Part shown: positions 9,821 to 36,941 of the stretch, piece by piece | Position numbering within the stretch: position 1 is the stretch's first letter | Layout of the letters: the number at the start of each line of letters is the position of its first letter | Source of the DNA: a virus | Taxonomy: Duplodnaviria; Caudoviricetes | Length of the DNA stretch: 54,276 bases | Direction: 5' to 3' (one strand) | IMG/VR virus record: IMGVR_UViG_3300025121_000066 | Location: 1 to 54,276 of that record | Translations under genes and position numbers: made by a program | Notes under the pieces: model-generated | The model's input: only the letters and a program-made list of their open reading frames with translations | Databases searched by the model: none | What the model was told of the DNA's origin: nothing

Positions 9821-9851
9821 TTTGCAAATTAAATAAATAGTTGTATATTTG
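9821..9851 (+). promoter_or_regulatory. Bacteroidota housekeeping-type promoter for gltX
   Basis: TTTG (9821-9824), 19-nt spacer, TATATTTG (9844-9851). Confidence 0.7.
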
Positions 9852-9893: not shown

Positions 9894-11681
9894 ATGATTA
9901 ATAATCAATCAATTTTAAAAAATGACGATGTAAGTAATTCAGTAAGAACGAGATACGCACCAAGCCCTACGGGACCAAATCATATTGGAGGTGTTAGAAC
10001 AGCACTTTATAATTACTTATTTGCTAAAAAGCATGGTGGTAAATTTATTTTAAGAATAGAAGATACTGATAGTAAACGATTTGTACCAGGTGCAGAAGAA
10101 TATATTATTGAATCTTTTAAATGGTTAGGATTAGATTTTGATGAAGGTCCAAATGTAGGTGGTTCGTATGGTCCGTATAAACAATCCGAACGTAAAAATA
10201 TCTATAAAGATTATGCTTTAATGTTAATTAATAAAGGTTTAGCATATTATGCATTTGATAGTTCAGATGATTTAGATCAAGCAAGAAAAATAGATAGTCA
10301 TTTTTCATATGATTATAATAGTAGAAAATCATTAAAGAATTCATTAACATTATCACAAGAAGAAGTTAAACATTTAACTGAAACATCTAATAATTGGACT
10401 ATTAGAATTAAATATCCTGATCAACCAACTACAATAGTAGTTAATGATATTATTAGAGGTGTTGTTAAAGTTGAATCTGATACACTTGATGATAAAGTTA
10501 TTTGGAAATGTATTGATCAATTACCAACATATCATTTAGCAAATATTGTTGATGATCATTTAATGAAAATTTCGCATGTAATTAGGGGTGAAGAATGGTT
10601 GCCATCTGCACCATTACACGTTTATTTATACGAATGCTTTGATTGGGTTCCTCCATTATTTGCACATTTACCTTTAATTCTTAAACCAGAAGGAAATGGT
10701 AAATTAAGTAAAAGAGATGGTGATTTATTAGGATTTCCTGTATTTCCTTTGGAATGGATTGATCCAAGTGGTGATGAAAGTAAAAATTCAAAAGGATATA
10801 GAGGTGAAGGATATTTACCTAAAGCAGTTTTAAATTTTCTTGTATTTTTGGGTTGGAATCCAGGAACAGAAAAAGAAGTTTATTCATTAGATGAATTAAT
10901 TCAAGATTTTTCTTTAGAAAGAGTTAATAAAGGTGGTGCTAGATTTAATCCAACAAAAGCAAATTGGTTTAATGCACAATATTTGAAAAAAACTGATACT
11001 GAACTATTAGTTGATTATTTTAAATCTGATTTAGAAAAAAGAGGAATTTATAAAGATGACGATTTCATTTTTAAAGTAGTTGATAAGTATAAAGGTAAGG
11101 TTGATTTTATTAAGAATCTTTATGATGAAGTTAAATTTATTTTTGATAAACCAATTGATTTTGATAAAAAATCATTAAAAAAATGGAAATATAATTCAGA
11201 TAAAATTGTTAAAGATTTTGTTAATAAATTGAGTAATTTAAATGATTGGTTTGCTAATGATATTCAAAATATTTTTAATAATTATACTATTAACAACAAT
11301 ATCAATACTAATGAATTAGCATCAGTTTTAAGATTATTATTAACTGGTAAAGCAAGTGGTACATCTCCATTTGATACAATGGAGATTATTGGTAAAATAG
11401 ATACATTAGATCGTTTAACTAAACACAATTTATCTACAGATACTAATATATCTAACTTAGATAATAATGTTGATAATATTAAAAAACAAAAAATTAATCA
11501 ATTATCGGCTGAATTAGATGGTTCTAAAAAATCATTAAAATCTACAGAAGGTAAATTAAGCAATGTAAATTTTATGGAAAAAGCACCAAAAGATGTAGTT
11601 GATAACGAAATAATTAAAAAGGATGAATTAATTTTAAAGATTTCTAAAATAGAAAAAGAATTATTTGAATTACAAGCATAG
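9894..11681 (+). CDS. gltX: glutamyl-tRNA synthetase with extra ValRS-like C-terminal coiled-coil arm
   Basis: RYAPSPTG.HIGG, LRIEDTD, PTYHLANIVDDH, HVIRGEEW, KLSKR; tail KLSNVNFMEKAPKDVV resembles the ValRS tRNA-binding arm. Confidence 0.95.
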   Translation: MINNQSILKNDDVSNSVRTRYAPSPTGPNHIGGVRTALYNYLFAKKHGGKFILRIEDTDSKRFVPGAEEYIIESFKWLGLDFDEGPNVGGSYGPYKQSERKNIYKDYALMLINKGLAYYAFDSSDDLDQARKIDSHFSYDYNSRKSLKNSLTLSQEEVKHLTETSNNWTIRIKYPDQPTTIVVNDIIRGVVKVESDTLDDKVIWKCIDQLPTYHLANIVDDHLMKISHVIRGEEWLPSAPLHVYLYECFDWVPPLFAHLPLILKPEGNGKLSKRDGDLLGFPVFPLEWIDPSGDESKNSKGYRGEGYLPKAVLNFLVFLGWNPGTEKEVYSLDELIQDFSLERVNKGGARFNPTKANWFNAQYLKKTDTELLVDYFKSDLEKRGIYKDDDFIFKVVDKYKGKVDFIKNLYDEVKFIFDKPIDFDKKSLKKWKYNSDKIVKDFVNKLSNLNDWFANDIQNIFNNYTINNNINTNELASVLRLLLTGKASGTSPFDTMEIIGKIDTLDRLTKHNLSTDTNISNLDNNVDNIKKQKINQLSAELDGSKKSLKSTEGKLSNVNFMEKAPKDVVDNEIIKKDELILKISKIEKELFELQA

Positions 11682-12069: not shown

Positions 12070-13062
12070 TTAAAAGTTAAATATCGAACTTAATATTGAT
12101 AATCTTTTATTAATTGGTGGCAATCCAAGTGGTTCAATGAATTTATTTACTATACTTAAAATGGTTTTATCAAATTGTTCATCTATATCAATTTTAACCT
12201 TTTCCTTTTCAACTATTTCTATTGGATGAAAACTTCTTAAATATCCGAATACTTCATTAATAGGATGTTTACAATAATAATATTTAATTCTACCAGATTT
12301 AATCATATCATATTTAGTTTTAAATTCACTATTCTTATTCAATAGATAATTATGGAAACATGCAGCTTTAACACCATAATGAGCACCTTTTACTGTATTT
12401 ACACCCATTGTATCATCTAAAACTTTTATATTATAATTTGTACAGCTAGTAGTCATACTGATATCTTCTATATCTGTTAATTCAAATTCCTTTTTAAGTT
12501 GTTTAACAATTTTTAATACTTCATAAATGTTTAAATTACCTGGATTAGAAAATAAATAATTTATAACTCTATAAATATTTTTTCTTACAAATGGTGGAGT
12601 AGATGATCTAATAATTTCTATTCCCTTTGGATAAAAATATGATAATGATTCATAATTAACACCATCTTCCCAAACTATATTATTTAGGTAATGCTTCTTT
12701 TTTAAAAATAGAGCAGACTTACTAATTGTTTCTAATTCAAAATCGTGTAAATTATGAACATGATATTGTGCAGCATAATCATCTAAAAATTTATCAAAAA
12801 GAGGTTTAATAAAAATATGATCAACGTGAATTATAAAATTTTTAGTTAATGTATCATTTTCATTAGGGTTAAACCCAACAGATTTCATTAATGGTGTCAT
12901 AGAAACATATAGACTATTATGTACTAAAATATCATTTGCTATAAATGTATGTGTATCATCATTTACTTCTATATCATATACGTATTCTTCTTCAAATTCA
13001 CCAATCATTTCACATGATTCCACATCATCAAAAATATATTCTATATCGTCTATCTTATTCAT
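12070..13062 (-). CDS. polB: C-intein fused to C-terminal (palm/thumb) part of family B DNA polymerase
   Basis: first 49 aa end VYDIEV...FIANDILVHN, then SLYV; KKKHY and PKGIEIIRSSTP PolB motifs. Confidence 0.92.
   Translation of the reverse strand: MNKIDDIEYIFDDVESCEMIGEFEEEYVYDIEVNDDTHTFIANDILVHNSLYVSMTPLMKSVGFNPNENDTLTKNFIIHVDHIFIKPLFDKFLDDYAAQYHVHNLHDFELETISKSALFLKKKHYLNNIVWEDGVNYESLSYFYPKGIEIIRSSTPPFVRKNIYRVINYLFSNPGNLNIYEVLKIVKQLKKEFELTDIEDISMTTSCTNYNIKVLDDTMGVNTVKGAHYGVKAACFHNYLLNKNSEFKTKYDMIKSGRIKYYYCKHPINEVFGYLRSFHPIEIVEKEKVKIDIDEQFDKTILSIVNKFIEPLGLPPINKRLSILSSIFNF
12916..13062 (-). mobile_element. split intein, C-fragment (49 aa, acidic)
   Basis: block F VYDIEV and block G HN followed by +1 Ser. 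Confidence 0.92.
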
Positions 13063-13064
13063 TT

Positions 13065-14126
13065 TTATATAATATTATTCATTTTTTCAATTAAATTATC
13101 ATCATATCTAATAATTATGTAATTTATATAATTATTATTACAGTAAGTTTGTTTAATTAAATTTTGAATATATTTTAATGTTTTTTCACCACCAAAGTAA
13201 TCTATTGGTTCATAGTGTTGTTTTCCATTATATTCTATACACAAATTATATTCAGGTAAGTAAAAATCAAAATATAGAGGCAATTTGTTTATGCAATATT
13301 CAAACGTCTTTTGATATTTAAAATTAATATTATTATTTTCTAAAAATAACATAATTTGTTTTTCTCCTTTTGAACTTTTACAATAAGGACAACCTTGTTT
13401 GGAATTAATATGATCTTTTGGGTTTTGTTTAAATATACCATGTTTTTTACATATAATTTTAACTTTGGTATAACTATTAATATAATTAACTAATGAATAA
13501 TCATAAATATTATTATGTATTTTATTAGATTTTTCTATGAAAGATTTTTTATTATCACAAAATTTTTCATATTTACATTTTGGACAACCTTGACCTAATA
13601 TATGTTGTGTTGGTCGTTGTTCAAATTCACCGTGTTTTGGACAAATTATTTTAATTTTAACTGTACTACCTTCATATTTTACTAATGAATAATCATAAAT
13701 ATTATTATGTATTTTATTAGATTTTTCTATAAAAATATGTTCATTATATCTGTTAGCACATTTTGGGCAACCACATTTTTCATTAATATGATTATCTGGA
13801 GTTTGTTTAAATTCACCATGAATTGAGCAAATGATTTTAACTTTTGTTTTTGCATTAATATATTTAAGTAAAGAATAATCATATTTATCATTATGAATTT
13901 TTTTAGATTCTTTTATAAATTCTTCTGTTGTTTTTACTTTACTTCCTCCACATATTTGACAACCTCTACCCGATAAATGCTTTGCTGGAATTTGTTCAAA
14001 TATACCGTGTTCTTTACATATTATTTTAATTTTGGTTCGATTATTAATATAATTAACTAGACAATAATTGTATCTATCACCGTGAATTTTTAATGATTTA
14101 TTTATAAATATTTTAGTTTTAGTCAC
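13065..14126 (-). CDS. free-standing endonuclease between the intein halves (4 Zn-ribbon repeats + Vsr/DUF559-like nuclease domain)
   Basis: repeats YDYSLVxY...KIICxxHGxFxQxPxxH...GCPxC; C-terminal FDFYLPEYNLCIEYNGKQHY; GTG start. Confidence 0.85.
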   Translation of the reverse strand: MTKTKIFINKSLKIHGDRYNYCLVNYINNRTKIKIICKEHGIFEQIPAKHLSGRGCQICGGSKVKTTEEFIKESKKIHNDKYDYSLLKYINAKTKVKIICSIHGEFKQTPDNHINEKCGCPKCANRYNEHIFIEKSNKIHNNIYDYSLVKYEGSTVKIKIICPKHGEFEQRPTQHILGQGCPKCKYEKFCDNKKSFIEKSNKIHNNIYDYSLVNYINSYTKVKIICKKHGIFKQNPKDHINSKQGCPYCKSSKGEKQIMLFLENNNINFKYQKTFEYCINKLPLYFDFYLPEYNLCIEYNGKQHYEPIDYFGGEKTLKYIQNLIKQTYCNNNYINYIIIRYDDNLIEKMNNII

Positions 14127-14151
14127 ATATTATATATTAAAGAAATTGAAA

Positions 14152-14511
14152 TTATTTTTTTCTGATTATTAAAATTTTATCAGTTTTTAATACTTCAGAT
14201 GGTTTTACTTCTATTTTTTCACCATTTCTAAATACAATCATAGAGTGATCATTAGTTACTATTATTTCTTTACCTGTTTTTGTTTTTAATTTCCATTTAG
14301 ATTTAGTTACTTTATGTCTTATAATTCGTTTAACTGGTGCATAATATAAACCTTTTTCTTCACAATAATTTAATATATTATCATTACATTTAACAGATTC
14401 ATGTCCTTTCAATGTTATGCCATTAGAACCATTTTTAATATTTTTATTATATAATTCTTCAATTGTTGAATTACCATTAATAGTATATATAGTAGAATTT
14501 TTATCGACACT
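14152..14511 (-). mobile_element. split intein, N-fragment (119 aa, Ser1)
   Basis: starts at Ser right after YGDTD; block B TxDH (VTNDHS); ends at stop with no terminal HN. Confidence 0.9.
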
Positions 14512-15087
14512 ATCAGTATCACCATATATAACTATTTGATTTTCACCAGTATATTTTTGTCTACCTTCTAAAGTTGTCCAAATAGGGTTTTCATCTAAAG
14601 GATTAACATTTTTAAAATCCCAGATATTATATTGATACATTATTTGAATATCATCGTGTTCAAATTCATATACTTCTAAATCGTCTAAACTAATTTCTTT
14701 ATGTTTAAATAAATCGTTTAATGTATCATGTTTCCAACCTATAATTTTGAAATCCATAGAAAGACATACAAATTTTTCATCCATTTTACCGATATATTCT
14801 ACACCTAACATATCGTGTTTTTTAATATCATTATGCCAATTATTATAAAAATATAATTCAATTCTTTCCATCATAAATTGATTTACATCTCTTCCATGAG
14901 CTGTAATTGAATTAGCAATATCAGCATTAGAACACACAAAATACTTATTAGCAAATGCACCATAAGTTCCGTTAAGTGTTAACTTCAAGGCTAATTGCAT
15001 AGCTTTTGCATAGTCGTGTTCCTTTTTCTTATTATCTATTAGAATTTTTAATTCGTTAATTCTTTGTTTTTTTTGTCTATCGTCCAT
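14152..15087 (-). CDS. polB: family B DNA polymerase fragment (fingers/motif B to motif C) fused to N-intein
   Basis: QLALKLTLNGTYG (motif B), YGDTD (motif C), then intein SVDKNSTI...TNDHSMIV. Confidence 0.92.
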   Translation of the reverse strand: MDDRQKKQRINELKILIDNKKKEHDYAKAMQLALKLTLNGTYGAFANKYFVCSNADIANSITAHGRDVNQFMMERIELYFYNNWHNDIKKHDMLGVEYIGKMDEKFVCLSMDFKIIGWKHDTLNDLFKHKEISLDDLEVYEFEHDDIQIMYQYNIWDFKNVNPLDENPIWTTLEGRQKYTGENQIVIYGDTDSVDKNSTIYTINGNSTIEELYNKNIKNGSNGITLKGHESVKCNDNILNYCEEKGLYYAPVKRIIRHKVTKSKWKLKTKTGKEIIVTNDHSMIVFRNGEKIEVKPSEVLKTDKILIIRKK

Positions 15088-15125
15088 AAATAAAAATTAT
15101 TTAATATATATTATGTATTATATTT

Positions 15126-16727
15126 TTAAAAAAATGTTTTAAAAATAAATTTATAATTTCCAGAATTATAAATACGATAAATTTTACGTTCTAACATAAT
15201 TTCTTTACTTGTTTTATTTTTATCAAATCCTTGTTTTATTAAATTACTTTTTCTAAAATTAAATCTATGTTTTCTGATATTATCAACTATATAATAATGA
15301 TTAGGTGGTGTTAAACTATCTATATTAAATCCTAATTTTTTATACAAATTTCCGTTAGAATAACTTCTATCTGCATAACTTGATATATATTCTGGATTAT
15401 ATTCTTTAATAAAATGTTTAAATAATTTTGAAGCTCCACCAATAACATTAGTATTTAATTTATTACAAAATCTTATAAGTTCAAATTTATTATCTGTTGA
15501 TTTTAAATTCATCATTTTTCTTAATTTACCAAAAGTCATTAAACTAACTAATTCATTTTCAAAAAATAATCCTAACTTAATTGATGATCCTACAAAGCCT
15601 TGAATATGATTTTTATTTAAGAAATTTTTAACTAATTTATTATCAGTTATCTCTCTTATTTCAGTTTTTCTTGCAAATATTCTATTTGATGATTTTTTGA
15701 ATTTATTTAAAATCATTGATTTGACTATATCTTTTTTAAATTCCCAATCATCTTCATAAATATGAATTAATTGAATTCCTTTTTCTTCACATAAATCAGA
15801 TTTATTTTTATGATAATTTTTATCTTTATTTAATTCATTATGCCAATATAATCCATTAAATTCGAATGCTAACTTTAAATCAGGTAGATAAATATCTAAT
15901 TCATATGGTTTTATTATTTTTTTACTATTTTCGACAATTTCGTCTTTATAGTTTTCTTTTATAAAATTTAATAATTGTTTTTCTATTTGTGATATATTCA
16001 TAAACCCAATAGGATTACAATTTAAACACAATTCATTATCGTATAAAATTCTTAATTGTAATAAATTTGAATTAATTAAATAATATTGATTACATTTATC
16101 ACATTTTAATTTATACTTATCATCAATCTTATCGATAATGATTAAATTATGTTTTTCTTTATAAATTTTTATAGAGTTATTAAATTTAGTAATTGAATTA
16201 CTTTTTTGAATTTTATTTTTAAAATAATCTAATTCTGATATATGATTAACACCATACTTATTTTTAATAGTGTTATTTATTTTTTCTCTTATTATATTTG
16301 ATGATAATGCATAATCTGTACCATATACTTCATTACATGTATTTATATATTTAGGCATATTATTATAATTTTCATCACCATATTTTTCGAATTTAGTTTT
16401 TTTCCCCTTTTCTTTTATTGATTCTACTTTCATAGGATTATCAACACCATAATTAATATTAAATGTTTTTTTCTTTTTTATTGTTGAACATTTATGGCAA
16501 GTATAAAAACCATATCTTTCATAATTGTCCATATATTTATTATATGTTAATTGTTTTTCATCATTACAATTTAAACATTTAATATTAATTAAAGCTCTAC
16601 TATTTCTAGGCAAATCATCTATTTTAACTTTTATTATATTATGTAAATCCACATTATAACCCTTATCTTTATAATATGATATATTTCTATATGACATTTT
16701 TATATCTATTGTTTTATCTAAAATCAT
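15126..16727 (-). CDS. Hef-like/Vsr-like homing endonuclease with N-terminal Zn-ribbons and YGV repeats
   Basis: ELDIYLPDLKLAFEFNGLYWH...IQLIHIYEDDW...RIFARK...NHIQG...GGASKLF...SYADRS; start reassigned to MILDKT. Confidence 0.8.
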   Translation of the reverse strand: MILDKTIDIKMSYRNISYYKDKGYNVDLHNIIKVKIDDLPRNSRALINIKCLNCNDEKQLTYNKYMDNYERYGFYTCHKCSTIKKKKTFNINYGVDNPMKVESIKEKGKKTKFEKYGDENYNNMPKYINTCNEVYGTDYALSSNIIREKINNTIKNKYGVNHISELDYFKNKIQKSNSITKFNNSIKIYKEKHNLIIIDKIDDKYKLKCDKCNQYYLINSNLLQLRILYDNELCLNCNPIGFMNISQIEKQLLNFIKENYKDEIVENSKKIIKPYELDIYLPDLKLAFEFNGLYWHNELNKDKNYHKNKSDLCEEKGIQLIHIYEDDWEFKKDIVKSMILNKFKKSSNRIFARKTEIREITDNKLVKNFLNKNHIQGFVGSSIKLGLFFENELVSLMTFGKLRKMMNLKSTDNKFELIRFCNKLNTNVIGGASKLFKHFIKEYNPEYISSYADRSYSNGNLYKKLGFNIDSLTPPNHYYIVDNIRKHRFNFRKSNLIKQGFDKNKTSKEIMLERKIYRIYNSGNYKFIFKTFF

Positions 16728-16852
16728 AATTCGTTTTTTGTTTTTATATATAAAATACAAATGCACCGAAAGTAGCATTTAATATAATGTATAACTTATG
16801 AAAAAAAATGTTTTTATTTTTTTATATATACATTAAAATATAAATAATTTTT

Positions 16853-25954: not shown

Positions 25955-25986
25955 AAAAAGGGAAATCAATCGATTTCCCTTTTTTA
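25955..25986. terminator. bidirectional intrinsic terminator
   Basis: AAAAAGGGAAATC-AATC-GATTTCCCTTTTTT between convergent genes. Confidence 0.8.
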
Positions 25987-28137: not shown

Positions 28138-28701
28138 TTATTTTTCAACAAAATATTCATTAATATCTTCGTCTTCTAATTGATCTTCACTTTCAATTAA
28201 ATAATCTGTAAAACAAATAGATACTAATACTGTACCATATTGTTCATTTGGTATCATTGATTGAACAATATAATTTTCTCCTTCCATTGTATAATGTGAA
28301 AAAGATTTGTTTTTAAGTTCTGATAATGATTCTTGTAAAGTTTCTTGTAAAGTTTCTTCGTCATAATATCCACCTCTTTGAACAACAATTCCTCCGATAT
28401 TATTTTCGTTTTTATCGTACAACCAACCGTATGCAATTCCTGCTGAAATCATTTCATCTTTTCTTCCGTCAAATCTACTCATAATACAATTCATAATTGA
28501 ACCAAAATGCAAATTAGTAGGTTGTTCTATTTCTGTTGCTTCTGGTGGTAATATTGAATTAAATTCAATAATATTTAAATTTCCTATTCCTGCATCTCTT
28601 AACGCTAAATAATAACTTCCTGATGTATGGGTATGTCTACTTTCACCACATCCCTGTGTTACAAAAAAACTATGCGGAATAAAATTTTGTATTTTTCTCA
28701 T
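28138..28701 (-). CDS. pyruvoyl-dependent arginine decarboxylase family protein
   Basis: FFVTQGCGES...SYYLALRDAGIGNLNIIEFNSILPP...ISAGIAYG (N-S where the family has the S-S self-cleavage site). Confidence 0.8.
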   Translation of the reverse strand: MRKIQNFIPHSFFVTQGCGESRHTHTSGSYYLALRDAGIGNLNIIEFNSILPPEATEIEQPTNLHFGSIMNCIMSRFDGRKDEMISAGIAYGWLYDKNENNIGGIVVQRGGYYDEETLQETLQESLSELKNKSFSHYTMEGENYIVQSMIPNEQYGTVLVSICFTDYLIESEDQLEDEDINEYFVEK

Positions 28702-30209: not shown

Positions 30210-30610
30210 TATTTATTTATTTTAATATTGTTATCTATTTTAAAATCTTGTAACCATAATATAGCTGAAAATACATCACTAAATACTTTATATTCGTATC
30301 TATCTATTGTTAATGCATATAACATAGCTATTGGTGTATCAAATATTTTATCATTATTTTCTAAAATTAATGCTACTTTTATTGAATTAAATTTTTGTAA
30401 TATTCCTTCGATATATATTTTTACTAATTTTTTCTTTTCAGAATCAAAAATATATTCTGATGTTCTTATATAAATAATTGCTCTTAAATCAAGTGGTAAT
30501 TGGCTATGACCTATTTGTTCAAAGCTATTTTTCATTTGATCTGTAGTTATTTCATTTGTATAAACTATTTCTAATACTTTTTTCTTTATATTCCATTTTG
30601 ATGTTATCAT
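30209..30610 (-). CDS. hypothetical protein (possible STAS/SEC14-like alpha-beta fold)
   Basis: KVALIL...YKVFSDVFSAILWL C-terminal pattern. Confidence 0.5.
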   Translation of the reverse strand: MITSKWNIKKKVLEIVYTNEITTDQMKNSFEQIGHSQLPLDLRAIIYIRTSEYIFDSEKKKLVKIYIEGILQKFNSIKVALILENNDKIFDTPIAMLYALTIDRYEYKVFSDVFSAILWLQDFKIDNNIKINK

Positions 30611-30633
30611 AACATCAATATATATTAAAAGTA

Positions 30634-30873
30634 CTATTTTGATAAAATCATTTCTAAATAATCATCCTTATTTACGAACTTATTACGTTTAGGATAATCA
30701 CTTAAAATATTATCTTGTAGTTTCATTAAGAAAATAGTGAATTCATTTAAATCCATATCAGATATTGGGGTATTTAATTTTATTAGAAATTGACATTCAT
30801 TACTAATGAAATTAATATAAATAACTTTTCCATATTGTGTTAAGAATTCTTTTAATTTTTGCTTTATATCCAT
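30634..30873 (-). CDS. hypothetical protein
   Basis: 79-aa ORF. Confidence 0.5.
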   Translation of the reverse strand: MDIKQKLKEFLTQYGKVIYINFISNECQFLIKLNTPISDMDLNEFTIFLMKLQDNILSDYPKRNKFVNKDDYLEMILSK

Positions 30874-30875
30874 AA

Positions 30876-31148
30876 TTATTCCGGTTTATTAACTTTTATA
30901 AATGTTTTACATTTTTTAGGTATTACAAATGCATTAAATTTTTTACCATCACCTTCAAATGGTTGAAATCGTAATGCCATTCCAAATGACCAATTATCTA
31001 AACCTAATGGTATAGCATAATCACCAAAATATACAGCTTGTGATTCATCTACGTATTTTCCACCACTTTCTTTACAATTACATAATCTAAATCCATCTGA
31101 ATATATTCTAAATATATCATGACATTTTTTACAATATATTAATTTCAT
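30876..31148 (-). CDS. Zn-ribbon hypothetical protein
   Basis: MKLIYCKKCHD...CNCKESGG. Confidence 0.65.
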   Translation of the reverse strand: MKLIYCKKCHDIFRIYSDGFRLCNCKESGGKYVDESQAVYFGDYAIPLGLDNWSFGMALRFQPFEGDGKKFNAFVIPKKCKTFIKVNKPE

Positions 31149-31152
31149 AATA

Positions 31153-31184
31153 CAAAGATACTATATTAATAACTTAATTACAAA
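31153..31184 (-). promoter_or_regulatory. Bacteroidota-type promoter
   Basis: TTTG, 20-nt spacer, TATCTTTG on minus strand. Confidence 0.65.
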
Positions 31185-31241
31185 TTTATTTTTAAATGTT
31201 TACTTATATAGAATCAATTACATAGTAAAATAACTTCATTG

Positions 31242-31327
31242 TACCCTGAGTGGGATTTGAACCCACATAGTATATTTCAACTGCCAGTTCCTAAAACTGG
31301 TGCGTCTGCCGATTCCGCCACCAGGGC
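31242..31327 (-). tRNA. tRNA-Leu(TAG)
   Basis: GCCCTGG/TCAGGGT acceptor, CCAGT-TTTAGGA-ACTGG, long V arm, TTCAAAT T-loop. Confidence 0.92.
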
Positions 31328-31355
31328 ATTCATTTGTTATATTGTAACTTTGTTG

Positions 31356-31435
31356 TACCCAAGGTGGGACTTGAACCCACATACCTTTCGGCACTGGTTT
31401 CTTAGGCCAGCATGTCTGCGTTCCATCACTCGGGC
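31356..31435 (-). tRNA. tRNA-Leu(AAG), atypical
   Basis: CTGGC-CTAAGAA-ACCAG (C.A at 31-39), V arm TGCC-GAAA-GGTA, D-loop lacks GG. Confidence 0.75.
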
Positions 31436-31437
31436 AT

Positions 31438-31653
31438 TTATTTTATATTATAATCTCCCCACCATTTATGAACTGCATTGTAAGGAACTACATCTGCTTT
31501 TTGTCCTTCTTTTGGTTCATCGTAAAATTTTAAACACCAATATCCACTCTTATGTACTATATAAAATGTTACCCTATCATATGCATCATATTCTGTATAA
31601 CAATAATCGTCTGATACATGTCTTACACTTTTCCCATTTTTATATTTTGTCAT
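31438..31653 (-). CDS. hypothetical protein within tRNA region
   Basis: MTKYKNGK...; own promoter directly upstream. Confidence 0.55.
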   Translation of the reverse strand: MTKYKNGKSVRHVSDDYCYTEYDAYDRVTFYIVHKSGYWCLKFYDEPKEGQKADVVPYNAVHKWWGDYNIK

Positions 31654-31669
31654 AATTTCTAATTTTACA

Positions 31670-31701
31670 CAAAAATACAAAAAATTATTGAATTATACAA
31701 A
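31670..31701 (-). promoter_or_regulatory. Bacteroidota-type promoter
   Basis: TTTG, 20-nt spacer, TATTTTTG on minus strand. Confidence 0.6.
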
Positions 31702-31704
31702 ATA

Positions 31705-31738
31705 AAGAACACAATATATTAAGGTATATTGTGTTCTT
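31705..31738 (-). terminator. hairpin, probable terminator after tRNA-Gly
   Basis: AAGAACACAATATA-6nt-TATATTGTGTTCTT, 14-bp stem. Confidence 0.6.
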
Positions 31739-31742
31739 ATTG

Positions 31743-31817
31743 AGCATCGTGTCGGGTTCAAACCGACCCTATTCTGCGGTGGAAGCGCAGTGCCATAATC
31801 AACTAGGCGAACGATGC
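31743..31817 (-). tRNA. tRNA-Gly(TCC)
   Basis: GCATCGT/ACGATGC, U73, CTGCG-CTTCCAC-CGCAG; T-loop TTTGAAC, D-loop GA instead of GG. Confidence 0.85.
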
Positions 31818-32522
31818 ATTATATTCTTGTATTAAATTTTCATATGTTAATTTCTTTAATTGATTTCTATATCTTTGTCTTTCACTTCTACCATTTCCAT
31901 TATTTAAAGATCCAAATGTTTTTGTTAATGAATGACAACTAGGACACAATAAATCTAAATTTTCTTCTAAATTATTTTTACTATTTCCATCTTTATGTTC
32001 AACTTGTAAAGGAATTTTATTTGTATAAGGATTTATTTTATTCCATCCACATTCAGTACATTTGCTATTATATTTTTTAAATAAATATTTTCTTATATAT
32101 GTAGATAATCCACTTCCAGATATTCCATTTTCTTCACCATTTTTCCACCTTTTTATATATTCATTATATTCATAATCACATTGACATTTATCACTACAAT
32201 ATTTTTTTTGTCTTCCTTCTAAATTTTTATCACAACATACACAATTTTTAATTTTCTTTTTTTTCTTTTTATTATTAAAAGATGCTGAACAACTTTTACT
32301 ACAAAATTTTCTTTCGTCTCTATCACTTATAATTTCTGTTTGGCAATTTAAACAAAAAAATATTTTAGTTTCTTTATAATCACTACTTTTTATTCCTAAT
32401 CTAAAACACTTTGATCTAATTGATTGATTTGTAGTTTCAAATATATTAGCAATTTCATCATAAGTATAACCATTTGTAATATATTGAATTAATTCTTTTA
32501 TACTTTCTTCTGTCCATTTCAT
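31803..32522 (-). CDS. HNH homing endonuclease
   Basis: CTECG...LQVEHKDGNSKNNLEENLDLLCPSCH; N-terminal HTH and KFCSKSC Zn fingers; start reassigned to MKWTEE (longer ORF runs through tRNA genes). Confidence 0.88.
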   Translation of the reverse strand: MKWTEESIKELIQYITNGYTYDEIANIFETTNQSIRSKCFRLGIKSSDYKETKIFFCLNCQTEIISDRDERKFCSKSCSASFNNKKKKKKIKNCVCCDKNLEGRQKKYCSDKCQCDYEYNEYIKRWKNGEENGISGSGLSTYIRKYLFKKYNSKCTECGWNKINPYTNKIPLQVEHKDGNSKNNLEENLDLLCPSCHSLTKTFGSLNNGNGRSERQRYRNQLKKLTYENLIQEYNASFA

Positions 32523-32583
32523 AATTTTATATCTTTTTTTATTATATATAAAATTTGAGCGGTCTGTTTTTTTTAATTTTTTG

Positions 32584-32657
32584 AGCGAATGACGGGACTT
32601 GAACCCGCAAACCTTCTGCTTGGCAAGCAGACTATCTACCAATTGATATACATTCGC
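32584..32657 (-). tRNA. tRNA-Gly(GCC)
   Basis: GCGAATG/CATTCGC, U73, TCTGC-TTGCCAA-GCAGA, TTCAAGT. Confidence 0.92.
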
Positions 32658-32662
32658 GTTTG

Positions 32663-32753
32663 AGCAGGTAGTGAGATTCAAACTCACGTTGTAGGCATTA
32701 ATGCCATTTCTGGATTGGAAGTCCAGCGCCATCGACCACTAGGCGACACCTGC
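32663..32753 (-). tRNA. tRNA-Gly(TCC) with long variable arm
   Basis: GCAGGTG/TACCTGC, U73, CTGGA-CTTCCAA-TCCAG, V region AAATGGCATTAATGCCTACAAC. Confidence 0.85.
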
Positions 32754-32763
32754 AAAAATTTTA

Positions 32764-32891
32764 AAAAATGATTTAAATATTAGGGAAAATTATTATCGTC
32801 TTTAATTCCACATAGATTGCGATTCTACATGTATTTCCCTTTGTAAAGATTGAAATGAAAAATAGTAAACTATTAACATTAAATCATTTTT
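32764..32891 (-). ncRNA. putative structured RNA between tRNA-Met and tRNA-Gly
   Basis: 13-bp terminal stem AAAAATGATTTAA/TTAAATCATTTTT enclosing AGGGAAA/TTTCCCT and CATGTAGA/TCTATGTG stems. Confidence 0.4.
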
Positions 32892-32892
32892 G

Positions 32893-32975
32893 TTGCGACG
32901 ACTGGTTTCGAACCAGCGGTACCCGAAGGATCTTGGATATGAGCCAAGTGCAATTGACCACTCTGCCACGTCGCA
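32893..32975 (-). tRNA. tRNA with CAT anticodon (Met, or lysidine-Ile) and long variable arm
   Basis: TGCGACG/CGTCGCA, CTTGG-CTCATAT-CCAAG, V region ATCC-TTCG-GGTACC, TTCGAAA. Confidence 0.85.
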
Positions 32976-32980
32976 ATATT

Positions 32981-33160
32981 AAAGTCTTTTTGTCCATTTT
33001 CAGTGAAATACCATTACGTTTTTGGATTGGTCCTGCCGTAACTTATGTATCTTTACAATAAACATCAACTGCTGAATCAGTCTATAATGATGTAGTTTTT
33101 CCTGGCTTTACAAGATTTCTAACTCTTACATTACTGTTTATCTTCAAGCAAAAAGACTTT
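32981..33160 (-). ncRNA. putative 180-nt structured RNA
   Basis: 12-bp terminal stem AAAGTCTTTTTG/CAAAAAGACTTT; central ACATCA/TGATGT + ACTG/CAGT hairpin; fills the spacer exactly. Confidence 0.45.
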
Positions 33161-33166
33161 GTGTTT

Positions 33167-33904
33167 TTAAATTATTTTTAAATCTTTTAATTCTTTTCTT
33201 TTCCATATAAGTAATGGTTCTTTAAATTGTGACCATTTACATTCATCTAAATCTGTTTGATATCCTTTAACTTCTAAATATGTATTCCAATCATGAATAT
33301 AAAAATCGGGACAATATGTTGATTTTTTATCTTTTAAATTAATATATTTAAATCTTTTTTTATTACGTTCCCATTTTACATTTATATTATCCAAATATTT
33401 AGCAACGCCTAATTCCCAACTACCATCTACTTTAATAATTCCTGCTATTGGGCTAGTATAATCATATTTAGGTGCTCTTCCACATTTTACTTCCCATCCA
33501 TTATCATATCTTTCTAATATTTTTTTTCGGATTTTTTTACATCTAATTTCTTCTTTTTCAGGTGTCGATCCTAATCCAGATGATGTAAATCCTCCTTTAC
33601 GACTACCTTCTATATATGATTCATATTTATCTGGTGAAAGAATGTCTTTCATTTTTTTACCTTTATTCCATCCTTGACCTTTTCCTATATTTAATCTTCT
33701 ACGTCTTGGTCCTCTACTATCACAACTATTTACATGTTTTTCTATAGATGATTTTATTTCAAAATTACATTTTGGACATATAAATATTTTTTTATTTTGT
33801 TTTTCCAAATCTGTTTTTGTTCCAAACCCATCACAATAATTTTCGTGATTAGATTTACCAGCTTTATTTTTAAATTCTTTATTACATTTGCTACAATTAT
33901 ACAT
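33167..33904 (-). CDS. PD-(D/E)XK (TnsA-N-like) free-standing endonuclease with N-terminal Zn fingers
   Basis: GSWELGVAKYLD...YCPDFYI...YLEVKGY; CSKC..H..C and CPKC..H..C. Confidence 0.8.
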   Translation of the reverse strand: MYNCSKCNKEFKNKAGKSNHENYCDGFGTKTDLEKQNKKIFICPKCNFEIKSSIEKHVNSCDSRGPRRRRLNIGKGQGWNKGKKMKDILSPDKYESYIEGSRKGGFTSSGLGSTPEKEEIRCKKIRKKILERYDNGWEVKCGRAPKYDYTSPIAGIIKVDGSWELGVAKYLDNINVKWERNKKRFKYINLKDKKSTYCPDFYIHDWNTYLEVKGYQTDLDECKWSQFKEPLLIWKRKELKDLKII

Positions 33905-33971
33905 AATAACTATTATTTTTTATTATATATAAAAATCATACAGGTCTAAAATTACCACTTTAAATATACTG

Positions 33972-34056
33972 CGGAGGACAAGGGAATTGAACCCTCGGAT
34001 CGTGAGACCAGATATTTAGCAGATACCCGCAACTAACCAACATTTGCCTATCCTCC
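33972..34056 (-). tRNA. tRNA-Ser(GCT)
   Basis: GGAGGAT/GTCCTCC, G73, GGTAT-CTGCTAA-ATATC, long V arm. Confidence 0.9.
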
Positions 34057-34073
34057 TTTTGTGTTTATAGTTG

Positions 34074-34153
34074 TGGAACTGGTGGGATTCGAACCCACGT
34101 TTTCGACCCTGCGTGCAAGGCAGGCGCTTACGGCCAAACTGAGCTACAGCCCC
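34074..34153 (-). tRNA. tRNA-Ala(TGC)
   Basis: GGGGCTG/CAGTTCC with G3:U70, CCTGC-CTTGCAC-GCAGG, 9-nt variable region. Confidence 0.92.
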
Positions 34154-34445
34154 AAAACTGCTACTTTTTTTAAAGGAAATCAACAAAACCATTTGTGGAA
34201 TGTTGCGGAATTTCATCGTCATGCCAATTGTCATAATACTATACAACCGTGAGGATTTTAATACCCCTTCACCCCATATTTTAAAGTGAAGGATAATATA
34301 ACTTCTTCATCAGAAATCATATTACCTATTTAGATAACCTAAGTTCGGTCTACACCTCAAACGATATCAAACCCCCTGTAGGTTAGGTAATTTATCGTAC
34401 TTAGTTAAAAATACCGTGAATATTTCTATGTTGTCTAATACTTCG

Positions 34446-34518
34446 TACCTCGGGTGGAACTCGAATCCACAGTCGCAAGTTTAGAAAACTTGTGCTTTTT
34501 CCATTAAGCTACCAAGGC
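34446..34518 (-). tRNA. tRNA-Arg(TCT)
   Basis: GCCTTGG/CCGAGGT, CAAGT-TTTCTAA-ACTTG, TTCGAGT. Confidence 0.92.
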
Positions 34519-34536
34519 ATTTTTGTGTTTTTAGAG

Positions 34537-34622
34537 AACCCCATGCGAGACTCGAACTCGCATGTCATTTCCAATTACTCGTTTAACGACACTGTTTAGA
34601 AGACTGTTGAGAATAATGGGGC
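34537..34622 (-). ncRNA. rearranged tRNA-like RNA with TCT anticodon loop
   Basis: acceptor GCCCCAT/ATGGGGT and perfect T-arm GCGAG-TTCGAGT-CTCGC; no D-arm in normal position; 29-nt insert after anticodon arm. Confidence 0.7.
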
Positions 34623-34663
34623 TTGTGTTTTTATTGTACTTACATAGTAAGACAACTTCGTTG

Positions 34664-34736
34664 TACCCTTAACAAGATTCGAACTTGTACAAAAAATTTA
34701 GGAAATTAATATGCTTCTCCATTACATCATAAGGGC
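34664..34736 (-). tRNA. tRNA-Arg(CCT), weak anticodon stem (possibly degenerate)
   Basis: GCCCTTA/TAAGGGT, TTAAT-TTCCTAA-ATTTT (two T.T mismatches), TTCGAAT. Confidence 0.7.
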
Positions 34737-34742
34737 ATTTTG

Positions 34743-34815
34743 AACCCCCTATGAGATTTAAACTCATAACCTCTCGGGCCGTAACCGAGTGCTCCGTTCG
34801 TTAAGCTAAGGGGGC
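34743..34815 (-). tRNA. tRNA-Arg(ACG)
   Basis: GCCCCCT/AGGGGGT, CTCGG-TTACGGC-CCGAG; T-loop TTTAAAT, D-loop lacks canonical GG. Confidence 0.82.
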
Positions 34816-34847
34816 TTATGTTTTTCATAATTAATTTTATATTTTTG

Positions 34848-34921
34848 TCTAGGTGGCGGGCTACGATCCCACGACATCCACATCCCAAATGTGGCATTCT
34901 ACCTGGCTGAATTACACCTAG
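34848..34921 (-). tRNA. tRNA-Pro(TGG)
   Basis: CTAGGTG/CACCTAG, A73, CCACA-TTTGGGA-TGTGG. Confidence 0.9.
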
Positions 34922-34930
34922 AAAACACAC

Positions 34931-34946
34931 AATACGTCAAAGAACT
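34931..34946 (-). promoter_or_regulatory. boxA-like antitermination element
   Basis: AGTTCTTTGACGTATT; related copies at 35061-35076 and 35178-35191. Confidence 0.55.
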
Positions 34947-34975
34947 TTTCATTGATAAATCAATGAAACTTAATG

Positions 34976-35061
34976 CTGTCCAGGTAGGGTTCAAACCTAC
35001 AAATTCCTCACGGAACACCAGATCCAAAATCTGGCGCGTTTATCAATTCCGCCACTGGACA
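34976..35061 (-). tRNA. tRNA-Gln(TTG) with long variable arm
   Basis: TGTCCAG/CTGGACA (U1-A72), G73, CCAGA-TTTTGGA-TCTGG, V arm TTCC-GTGA-GGAA, Leu-like D-arm. Confidence 0.85.
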
Positions 35062-35079
35062 ATATTTTAAAGAACTAAT

Positions 35080-35095
35080 TGTTCCACGTGGAACA
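35080..35095. promoter_or_regulatory. parS: parS-like centromere palindrome
   Basis: perfect TGTTCCACGTGGAACA, identical to 25939-25954. Confidence 0.8.
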
Positions 35096-35100
35096 AGTTG

Positions 35101-35174
35101 GGTGATATGTGGGTTACGATCCCACTACCTTCTGCGCCACAAGCAGACACTCTACCGATTGAGCTAATACCACC
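35101..35174 (-). tRNA. tRNA-His(GTG)
   Basis: encoded G-1 and C73, TCTGC-TTGTGGC-GCAGA. Confidence 0.92.
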
Positions 35175-35202
35175 ATTTATTTTAAAGAACGTTTATAAAA
35201 AC

Positions 35203-35233
35203 AAAAAACCCGAAACTTTTTTTGGTTCCGGGT
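35203..35233 (-). terminator. attenuator terminator upstream of first tRNA
   Basis: ACCCGGAAC-8nt-GTTTCGGGT followed by TTTTTGTTTTT, lying between promoter and tRNA-His. Confidence 0.85.
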
Positions 35234-35305
35234 GTGTCTTATGGTTTTTTATATTTTATATGAAATTAATCATGTTTTATATAACTGTTTCCAATTAGAC
35301 ACACC
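35231..35305 (-). promoter_or_regulatory. antiterminator helix
   Basis: GGTGTGTCT (35297-35305) pairs AGACACACC (35231-35239), which overlaps the terminator 5' strand. Confidence 0.75.
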
Positions 35306-35371
35306 GCTTCTTCCTGCTGGACGACTGCCCTGTAGTTGATGCATTCTCATATGTCTATTTGTCATTGTCAT
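35270..35371 (-). CDS. leader peptide of the tRNA array (33 aa, MTMTNRHMRMHQLQGSRPAGRSGVSNWKQLYKT)
   Basis: manual translation; codons 6-23 all decodable by the downstream tRNAs; overlaps antiterminator. Confidence 0.8.
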   Translation of the reverse strand: MTMTNRHMRMHQLQGSRPAGRSGVSNWKQLYKT

Positions 35372-35448
35372 AATTTATATTTTGTTATTTTATTATATAT
35401 ATTTAATTATTTAAGTCTATTTTTTCCATTTTGAAATATTTATAGGTA

Positions 35449-35480
35449 CAAAGATATATAAAGTTTATTTATTCTCCAAA
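35449..35480 (-). promoter_or_regulatory. Bacteroidota-type promoter of leader/tRNA array
   Basis: TTTG (35477-35480), 20-nt spacer, TATCTTTG (35449-35456); TATATATA motif also at ~35394-35402. Confidence 0.7.
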
Positions 35481-35773
35481 TTTTTTCGTATATTTTTTTT
35501 TCTTTCATCAATTGTCAAATATGTTTTTTGTTCTACTTCCTTTATATCATCCTGGTTTTGCAATCTTTTATTTATATTAAAATTTAATATTTTATTTTTA
35601 ACATAATCTAAAATTTCGGTATCAGTATATTCTTTTAATACATATGAATCTATTGATAATTTTTTTTCAAAATATAAATATCGATGATTATAACCATCTA
35701 TAATTATATTATTCTTTTTTAAAAGTTTATATATCTTCCTTGTTGAAGTTAATGAATAATCTATATCGGACAT
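35465..35773 (-). CDS. hypothetical protein, paralog of 36334-36941
   Basis: NHRYLYF...YTDTEILDYVK...LTIDERKKNIRKNL. Confidence 0.65.
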   Translation of the reverse strand: MSDIDYSLTSTRKIYKLLKKNNIIIDGYNHRYLYFEKKLSIDSYVLKEYTDTEILDYVKNKILNFNINKRLQNQDDIKEVEQKTYLTIDERKKNIRKNLENK

Positions 35774-35782
35774 AATTAATAA

Positions 35783-36019
35783 TTAAAAAATATGACCACA
35801 TACAATATTAAAATTCTCATCTACTTCAATTTCAATATTAGCAAATTCGCCATATTGGAATTTTTTTTGTACTACTTCTGTATAGAATTTATCAGAAAGT
35901 TCATCTTCATCTAAGCCTGGATGTTCTTTTTCAAATTTATCCCATAATAATTCATGAGCTAATTCCATCCAACCATCAGAAGCTTTAATTGATTCTATTT
36001 TAATTTTTGCTGTTTTCAT
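35783..36019 (-). CDS. hypothetical protein
   Basis: 78-aa acidic ORF. Confidence 0.6.
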   Translation of the reverse strand: MKTAKIKIESIKASDGWMELAHELLWDKFEKEHPGLDEDELSDKFYTEVVQKKFQYGEFANIEIEVDENFNIVCGHIF

Positions 36020-36333
36020 TATTTTTAATATTGTTATTTTACAGTTTTTTCTAATTTATCTATTCGATGAATTAATTCTAACATACTAACTTTAAGTAAT
36101 TTAATTTCATCTTGCTGTATTCTAGCTATATTTGCCAAATGATTTATTTGTTTATCAACATATATTTTATCTTTTTCTATCATATTACAATATTTAAAAC
36201 TTATAATAAAATCTATTATTATGAAAACCATAATCTTTATGATTACAATCTTTACATACTTTTATTTTTTCATTTTGCAAACCCCATTGCCATTCCCAAT
36301 TTTTATGTTTACAAAAAATTTGTTTAAGCCAGT

Positions 36334-36941
36334 TCATAATTTATTTAAATTTTCACGTATAACTTTTTTTCTTTCATCAATAGTTAAAAAAGATTTTCTT
36401 TCAATTTGTGTAACTGTATCTTCTGTTTTTGGTATTGAAAATGTTTGGTTTAATGTATTGAAAATGTTTGGTTTAATGTATTTGCTAATTCATAGCCATC
36501 AGCCATATCTTTAATAGTAACATATGTAGTATTACTTTCACAATTTAACAGTTTAAGTTTTTTAGTGGTACTAGAAAGATAAAATTTAAATATTATTTTT
36601 CCATCAGAATTTCTACCTTGTTTCATCCACTCTGCCCAATCAGGTGTAACTGATTTTGTCAAATGTTCCCAACGAATATTTGTTATAGATGATCTTTTTG
36701 TTTTTTTGTTAGTATCTTCTTTTCTATTAACTATTTTATTAATAATATGTTTTTTTACATATTCTAAAATTTCATCGTCTGAATAATGTTTTATATCATA
36801 TGTATCAATAGATATGTCATTCGATATTTTAACACCTTTAAAAATATAAATATATCTATAATTATGATGATTTATAGATATACCGTGTTCTTTTAAAAGT
36901 TCAACTATTCTTTGAGTATTTTTAAAATCATGAATATGCAT
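36334..36941 (-). pseudogene. paralog of 35465-35773 frameshifted by a 23-bp tandem duplication
   Basis: GTATTGAAAATGTTTGGTTTAAT at 36432-36454 and 36455-36477; removing one copy restores ...FLTIDERKKVIRENLNKL. Confidence 0.7.

Follow-up and report, generated by a model that had tools for sequence, protein, structure and literature searches.

The transcription attenuators in the leaders of amino-acid operons (trpL, hisL, leuL, thrL, ilvL and pheL) share a promoter-proximal open reading frame (ORF) with codons cognate to the product of the operon, four segments that form 1:2, 2:3 and 3:4 helices, and an intrinsic terminator immediately upstream of the first structural gene. The same layout is predicted ahead of a transfer RNA (tRNA) array in the stretch of viral DNA analysed here (the window), 54,276 bases with 24% G+C that make up the entire record of virus IMGVR_UViG_3300025121_000066. 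While those leaders control enzymes and contain runs of codons for one to three amino acids, the leader in the window precedes tRNA genes in what is most likely a huge phage, and calls for up to 9 amino acids through 14 distinct codons. An attenuator acting on a component of the translation apparatus through codons for the cognate amino acid is known from Escherichia coli, where the pheM leader controls pheST, encoding phenylalanyl-tRNA synthetase. In that case, the product under control is a synthetase, and the leader responds to a single amino acid.

T-box riboswitches, as proposed here for the window, sense the tRNA pool by means of a codon-like specifier and operate a terminator/antiterminator switch, but they bind uncharged tRNA without translation via Stem I and T-box motifs, whereas the triplets in the window lie in a translatable frame. 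Huge phages are described in the main text of Al-Shayeb et al. 2020 (PMC7162821) as carrying up to 67 tRNAs, as well as synthetases related to those of Bacteroidetes, and the window likewise encodes such a phage synthetase, GluRS. A term search of that main text gave no occurrence of ‘attenuat’, ‘leader’ or ‘terminator’, and no paper on leader-peptide control of phage tRNA genes was found in full-text searches of papers available without subscription. By analogy, the mechanism proposed below would be filed with the trp, his, leu, thr, ilv and phe leaders, and would be new in its target, the breadth of its input and its carrier.

All parts of the leader cassette lie on the minus strand of the window. 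A Bacteroidota-type promoter at 35449-35480 consists of a -33 TTTG (35480-35477), a 20-nt spacer and a -7 element, TATCTTTG (35456-35449), and fits the TTTG/TAnnTTTG consensus that we take to be that of Bacteroides promoters. Matches to the pattern TTTG-N19-21-TAnnTTTG number 11 in the window as compared with 3.1 ± 1.8 in shuffled sequence (11 were reached in 0 of 100 shuffles), and the promoter core (AAACTTT...TAnnTTTGTA) is like that of the promoters that precede leaders of other huge phages. The promoter is separated by an AT-rich 5′ region of ~70 nt from the ATG (35371) of a leader ORF of 33 sense codons (35371-35270), which encodes the peptide MTMTNRHMRMHQLQGSRPAGRSGVSNWKQLYKT and closes with a TGA ending at 35270. 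Its N-terminus, MTMTN, resembles those of other leaders (MTTIN, MTTNS, MRTIN and MKTIN). This short ORF, complete with start and stop, sits between the promoter and the first tRNA gene, and is followed by an intrinsic terminator (35233-35197) with a 9-bp stem (35233-35225/35216-35208, ACCCGGAAC/GTTTCGGGT), an 8-nt loop and a T tract at 35207-35197, the G+C-rich hairpin (35233-35208) running into TTTTTGTTTTT. Under stricter criteria, two terminator loci were detected in the whole window, this one and a bidirectional one at 25956-25983 between convergent genes. The tRNA-His gene starts 34 nt past the terminator stem, and 11 of those nt are the T tract; the gap therefore has no room for a promoter of the TTTG-N19-21-TAnnTTTG pattern. 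The promoter, the 33-codon ORF and the terminator that an initial annotation of the stretch had placed upstream of the array are thus all present, with the expected spacing, start, stop, length and stem. When positions 30500-36500 were searched with Rfam (cmscan, E ≤ 1), tRNA-clan matches and three weak unrelated matches were obtained; neither a leader family (His_leader, Trp_leader, Thr_leader, Leu_leader and others) nor the T-box model was matched in that region.

The array consists of 14 tRNA genes on the same strand as the leader (31241-35173), predicted by ARAGORN to serve His, Gln, Pro, Arg (three genes), Ala, Ser, Met, Gly (three) and Leu (two), i.e. 9 amino acids through 13 distinct anticodons. 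All 18 codons of the regulatory stretch of the leader (codons 6-23, RHMRMHQLQGSRPAGRSG, 35303-35356, minus strand) can be decoded by these anticodons with standard wobble, and 13 of the 18 are exact Watson-Crick cognates, which cover 10 of the 13 anticodons. The leader lacks AGG, CTT and CAC, and its CAT is decoded by His-GTG through wobble. Within codons 6-23 there are 14 distinct codons, mostly occurring once or twice each, and these 54 nt have 50% G+C, as compared with 24% for the window. The match described in the initial annotation, with nine amino acids and ten exact cognate anticodons in a GC-rich stretch of an AT-rich genome, was reproduced in every particular.

The probability of such a match arising by chance was estimated in several ways. 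As judged from all six frames of the window, 19% of triplets are array-decodable; the longest run of such triplets is 18 and is the leader itself, the next being 9 and 8. In mononucleotide shuffles of the 54 nt, 18 of 18 decodable codons were obtained in 0 of 300,000 (maximum 16) and at least 10 distinct cognate codons in 22 of 300,000, while a model of independent, identically distributed bases with the composition of the stretch itself gives P = 1.5e-7 for 18/18. The nine array amino acids account for 33% of residues in the long ORFs of the phage, which gives P ~2e-9 for 18 in succession, and, given the peptide and the synonymous usage of the phage, P = 0.0044 for all 18 codons being array-decodable. 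The codons CTA, GGC, CGT, AGC and CAG, each only 2-7% of synonyms, are used exactly at anticodon matches. The post-hoc choice of the ends of the stretch is too small an effect and cannot absorb factors of this order; the codon match is confirmed as real and far beyond chance.

Loci of other phages were drawn from a search of IMG/VR with a GluRS alignment and from huge-phage records matched by tRNA-His, together with the positions of their tRNAs. In a first scan for runs of array-decodable codons, the top runs lay 85-215 nt upstream of arrays and on the same strand. A pipeline blind to codon content was then applied, in which a terminator had to lie ≤200 nt upstream of a tRNA and an ATG-initiated ORF of 10-60 codons had to end just before that terminator. 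Across the window and 9 loci from other huge phages, it returned 21 units with 20 unique peptides, to which visual inspection and the 735-kb phage LR756501 added five. In 25 of 25 units, the frame of the triplets is that of an ORF of 17-43 codons with its own ATG and stop. The first tRNA begins 6-35 nt after the terminator stem in 12 of the 21 pipeline units, and with so short a gap no route to the tRNAs other than read-through is evident.

The leaders found in this way differ according to the arrays that they precede. A leader with ..QQQQQQQ.. stands before four Gln tRNAs and a Leu-rich leader before five for Leu, while ..YYYEE.. precedes Glu and Tyr, ..SSRSRSS.. precedes Arg, Ser and Arg, and ..PQPQDQD.. 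precedes Gln, Pro and Asp. An array for Phe, His and Lys follows the leader with ..KHKHFSKLNKWF.. (KHKHF..KWF), and a related leader with ..KSHKWF.. (L014) is followed by His, Phe, Trp and Lys. Broader inputs are seen in ..TTINNTICNKK.. (before Asn, Thr, Lys, Ile, Met and Cys), ..PMGYMG.P..DD.. (before Pro, Asp, Tyr, Gly and Met), ..IINMIQEQMQQIQ.. (before Met, Gln, Ile and Glu) and NLNMNMNTLTVVNNTL / MTTINLNMNMNTLTVVNNTL... (before Asn, Leu, Val, Thr, Leu and Met), as well as in ..VKFTPAPAVAFRRGTGTGTGTCVPAG.., one of the units found by eye or in LR756501, which stands before Arg, Thr, Val, Ala, Gly and Pro.

To quantify this correspondence, each leader was compared with every array by a binomial test, and the values of -log10 p were summed. 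The own array ranked first for 11 of the 20 unique leaders, with a score of 56.8 as compared with 12.0 ± 4.5 for swapped pairs (0 of 100,000 swaps reached it). When one unit was retained for each of 15 leader types, the own array ranked first for 13 of the 15, and the score of 51.9, as compared with 10.2 ± 4.0, was reached in 0 of 200,000 swaps. Co-variation of leader codons with array anticodons in related phages had been named beforehand as a test of the proposal, and it was observed. A bias was also found at the synonymous level. Of the 183 codons in the 15 units that specify an amino acid for which the own array has a tRNA (Met and Trp excluded), 166 are decodable, the expectation from synonymous usage being 147.5 ± 3.8, and 166 was reached in 0 of 20,000 simulations. 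A second codon-blind scan was anchored on the promoter core, AAACTTT-N3-4-TAnnTTTGTA, which gave 82 matches in 80 IMG/VR loci. Ten of these have a same-strand tRNA within 600 nt, and in 8 of the 10 there is an ORF and a terminator, with fitting codons. What is conserved across phages is codon content that tracks the array, not the sequence of the peptide.

The window leader was folded in both conformers; the structures and energies given here are predictions. Three segments of the minus strand are involved. Segment 1 (35348-35356, AGACAUAUG, codons 6-8) pairs in minimum free energy folds with segment 2 (35297-35305, GGUGUGUCU (GGTGTGTCT), codons 23-25), a pairing that would act as an anti-antiterminator or pause hairpin. 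Segment 2 is also the 5′ strand of the antiterminator, the 3′ strand of which is segment 3 (35231-35239, AGACACACC), whose last 3 nt are the first 3 of the terminator stem. In the free leader, the hairpin of codons 6-8 with codons 23-25 encloses the regulatory codons and is followed by the terminator. The 1:2 domain has an energy of -17.0 kcal/mol and the 2:3 domain one of -21.0 kcal/mol, of which the 9-bp duplex has -16.1 kcal/mol, while the terminator has -12.7 kcal/mol, or -3.8 kcal/mol without its first three pairs. When the A site of a ribosome is placed at any of codons 8-18 and polymerase has reached the terminator loop, the 9-bp antiterminator is predicted to form. The 2:3 helix had been put forward from the sequence alone; the 1:2 hairpin is an addition to it, and in the model the window leader completes the classical four-segment layout.

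The specificity of this pairing was assessed by exchanging terminators between units. Segment 2 of the window pairs with its own terminator at -15.8 kcal/mol, as compared with a median of -6.8 kcal/mol for the terminators of the 24 other units, the best of which gives -10.4 kcal/mol, and the own terminator thus ranks 1 of 25. For all 25 units, the duplex energy of the ORF body, taken from codon 6 to just upstream of the terminator, was computed with the 5′ arm of the own terminator and with swapped arms. The own arms sum to -291 kcal/mol and the swapped arms to -200.7 ± 12.2 kcal/mol, with 0 of 100,000 swaps as low, and the own arm ranks first in 8 of the 25 units, including the window. Across units, the tails of the ORFs are specifically complementary to the 5′ arms of their own terminators.

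The reading given in the initial annotation, a trp/his-type leader-peptide attenuator with codons that mirror the array, is supported by the co-variation, the synonymous choice and the complementarity between ORF and terminator, and we consider it likely, with good confidence, that the cassette is a ribosome-mediated transcription attenuator gating the phage tRNA array. Transcription would begin at the Bacteroidota-type promoter, and a ribosome would start on the 33-codon leader. If codons 6 to ~18 were decoded fast, the ribosome would run on, and segment 2 would be covered or re-captured by segment 1; the terminator (35233-35208) with its T tract would then form, and transcription would stop 34 nt before tRNA-His. 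If a decoding tRNA were scarce, uncharged or damaged, the ribosome would stall with segment 1 covered and segment 2 free, and free segment 2 would pair with segment 3, taking the base of the terminator stem, so that polymerase would enter the array. Given that the products are the tRNAs reading those same codons, the circuit would be a negative-feedback homeostat of decoding capacity, with ~10-14 codons for 9 amino acids as inputs. Candidate triggers are the start of infection, a poor host pool, shortage or cleavage of host tRNAs by defences, and amino-acid starvation; as an alternative to depletion of host tRNAs or attack by anticodon nucleases, the circuit could be a simple feedback on the tRNA output of the phage itself. 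More broadly, huge Bacteroidota phages probably, though with less assurance, run a distributed, programmable tRNA homeostat, in which most multi-tRNA arrays have a bespoke leader and each is switched separately. An array would then be turned on when the decoding capacity for its own codons falls, whether at the start of infection, through host anticodon nucleases or through phage-induced turnover.

Other explanations of the same features were also considered. The same attenuator hardware could read amino-acid supply, i.e. tRNA charging, and match the array only because the array serves those amino acids. The mechanism cannot tell a missing from an uncharged tRNA at an empty A site, and the match is partly one of amino acids, 17 of the 183 codons (some for Ser, Ile and Val) being unread under strict wobble. 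Nevertheless, this explanation appears unlikely, as codon choice is biased to the own anticodons (166 against 147.5 ± 3.8), the rare codons CTA, GGC, CGT and AGC are used in the window exactly at anticodon matches, and an extra tRNA gives no relief from amino-acid starvation. Sensing of isoacceptors is favoured over sensing of amino acids because of this bias at the codon level.

It is very unlikely that the ORF merely encodes a small protein or belongs to an unrelated transcript with a leaky terminator, so that constitutive read-through or a cryptic start would supply the tRNAs and the match would have no regulatory meaning. Array-tracking codon content is conserved across phages where the peptide is not, chance is estimated at 1e-7 or less, and each set of ORF tails shows specific pairing potential with its own terminators; this has to be set against the frequency of short ORFs in AT-rich DNA and the small overlap of the terminator with the alternative helix in the window copy. 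An untranslated RNA that binds tRNAs directly by codon-anticodon pairing, in the manner of a T-box or as a sponge, would account for the exact Watson-Crick complementarity of the triplets to 10 of the 13 anticodons, but would make the reading frame incidental. We regard it as highly improbable, since in every one of the 25 units the triplets share the frame of an ATG-to-stop ORF, synonyms read by wobble (CAT, CAG, AGT and GGT) are used as well, neither the T-box nor another Rfam family was matched at E ≤ 1, and many of the triplets lie inside a stem in the predicted fold of the free RNA.

Several observations count against an attenuator of this kind or limit its reach. With the A site at codons 20-22, segment 2 is covered in the predicted folds and no antiterminator forms. 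The caution already attached to the initial proposal, that late stalls would cover the antiterminator strand, is borne out for codons 20 or later; stalls at codons 20-23 should not antiterminate because the stalled ribosome covers segment 2, and the last four regulatory codons are probably ineffective. The antiterminator and the terminator overlap by 3 nt in the window copy, as compared with 7-12 nt in many relatives. The proposed 9-bp pairing, which takes the first three pairs of the terminator stem, was recovered, but equilibrium folds of the complete leader let an antiterminator shortened to 6 bp coexist with the full terminator. The switch would therefore have to be kinetic, and in the window it may be partial. 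By the crude measure of duplex energy, 7 of the 25 units rank below tenth and have no specific antiterminator complementarity, and the units come from related phages and are phylogenetically non-independent. Assumptions were made in the wobble rules and in the anticodon calls for unusual tRNAs. That the ORF is translated and that read-through is regulated are inferred from sequence, as is the physiological trigger.

The CTA codon of the leader refers to a Leu tRNA that is possibly in a separate unit. A hairpin (31738-31705) and a promoter match (31701-31670) do exist upstream of the tRNA-Leu pair (31241-31435, minus strand), as had been pointed out, and the pair may be a separate transcription unit uncoupled from the rest; without the Leu tRNAs, 17 of the 18 leader codons are still decodable. 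No close homologue of the window leader was found. A blastn search of 34900-35800 against 50,697 phage records gave matches to tRNA-His only, no related locus was recovered with the two proteins encoded upstream or with GluRS as the sole query, and the exact 35-nt leader pattern had 0 matches in IMG/VR. The closest GluRS relatives (L001 and L002) are 58-59% identical, and the record of L002 contains no tRNA. In the record of L001, the array of this nearest relative (L023) starts at the contig end, so that any leader would be cut off.

Leaders are also missing from some tRNA groups. The pipeline detected a leader at 9 of 16 first-in-locus tRNAs. In two other loci (L015 and L017), the leader lies further upstream, ARAGORN having missed the first tRNAs, while the remaining sites, at which no leader was found, hold an odd tRNA, a suppressor/Lys pair or a single Met tRNA (one of the Met sites being counted twice). 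In LR756501, leaders precede 4 of 5 groups of at least 5 tRNAs, and one large and three small groups are without one.

If true, the model would provide the first case of tRNA genes under leader-peptide attenuation, as well as the first attenuator to take about ten independent codon inputs, and would carry this kind of control over from amino-acid metabolism to the machinery of translation. The regulation of phage tRNA genes is largely unknown, and the reason why huge phages carry dozens of them is debated, with codon supply, host shut-off and counter-defence under discussion. A phage tRNA supply under feedback control would go beyond mere timing, and the counter-defence hypothesis would become directly testable. 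The leaders would further provide a label, readable from sequence, of tRNA regulatory units and of the codons that a phage treats as limiting, and could serve as a natural, compact blueprint with several inputs for synthetic circuits reporting on tRNA availability.

Some of the sites without a leader have features of their own. The leaderless large group of LR756501 (L025, minus strand, 902-1042) is preceded by an ORF and then a G+C-rich non-coding stretch; the C-terminus of the ORF looks like what we take to be ribosomal protein bL12. In L016 and L030 (from G003 and LR756501), tRNAs with anticodon CTA, reading TAG, suggest stop-codon recoding in these genomes, and these tRNAs are without a leader cassette. 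Two unrelated phages were also inspected, which is too few to define the range of the cassette. No unit of this kind was seen in Arthrobacter phage Atuin (L031), and Vibrio phage D260 (L032) has a weak candidate only, which overlaps an annotated gene in another frame. In this candidate (7116-7260 of L032), 37 nt separate the end of a 29-codon ORF, with many Val, His, Ile and Phe codons, from a weak terminator, which is itself 6 nt before tRNAs for Ile, Val, Phe and His. The ORF may be due to chance, or may hint at the device outside huge Bacteroidota phages.

Twelve of the array genes in the window were confirmed as tRNAs by Rfam, and those for Ala and Ser match clan relatives. The mismatched anticodon stem noted earlier in Arg-CCT is present, with two U.U mismatches. 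Four tRNAs on the minus strand have a long variable arm or extra variable bases, namely Gln-TTG (34975-35061, 87 nt), Met-CAT (32892-32975, 84 nt), Gly-TCC (32662-32753, 92 nt) and Ala-TGC (34073-34153, 81 nt), although their anticodon classes are normally without a long variable arm. In related huge phages, a tRNA of normal length and a long one share an anticodon, e.g. for Lys, Gln, Glu and Asn, the long ones having 85-90 nt. If identity follows the long arm, such tRNAs might be charged with Ser or Leu. A further sequence on the minus strand (34540-34625) resembles a tRNA, having an acceptor stem of 7 bp and a canonical T arm (GCGAG TTCGAGT CTCGC), but was called neither by ARAGORN nor by Rfam; it may be a pseudogene or a tRNA that carries an insertion. 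Two further regions inside the array, on the same strand, have no called gene: in 34160-34440 the G+C content is raised to 0.31-0.36, and in 32980-33160, bounded by an inverted repeat (AAAGTCTTTTT ... AAAAAGACTTT), it is 0.24-0.39. Both are possibly structured RNAs of unknown type or intron remnants. The array also contains two HNH/endonuclease-like ORFs on the minus strand, at 31803-32732 and 33167-33904. The former begins within tRNA-Gly(TCC) at 32662-32753, and its end overlaps a second tRNA-Gly(TCC) at 31742-31817, as if insertion of the endonuclease had duplicated its own target.

The assignment of the window to a huge phage with a Bacteroidota host, which is most likely, is based on homologues of GluRS, on the inferred genome sizes of relatives and on tRNA-His. 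GluRS (595 aa, 9894-11681, plus strand) has an extra C-terminal coiled-coil domain (PF10458); its named homologues, with ~54% identity, are from Bacteroidota, and its closest unnamed homologues are 58-76% identical. The IMG/VR contigs with the closest synthetases have the same base composition as the window and are 13-43 kb in length with a CheckV completeness of 4-6%, and their genomes would therefore be several hundred kb. The tRNA-His of the window is 83.5% identical to a tRNA in LR756501. A leader for GluRS itself was considered and rejected, as the promoter match at 9821-9851 is ~43 nt ahead of the ATG, a gap too short to hold one.

The sequencing runs found to contain the window are DNA runs from groundwater and soil metagenomes, with no RNA run among them. 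Four DNA runs were checked for strain variants; one has an identical copy, and the others gave short, unrelated or tRNA-like pieces. The small proteins encoded near the leader had no match in PHROGs or Pfam, and a homologue of pyruvoyl-dependent arginine decarboxylase is encoded at 28138-28701 (minus strand). Besides the two inside the tRNA array, homing-endonuclease-like ORFs occur elsewhere in the window, as do pieces of a DNA polymerase. In the region 12070-16778 (minus strand), endonuclease-like ORFs at 13065-14126 and 15126-16778 adjoin a 330-aa ORF (12070-13062) with matches to DNA polymerase, and a further ORF (14152-15087) lies between the two, an arrangement which suggests that a polymerase gene has been split by mobile elements.

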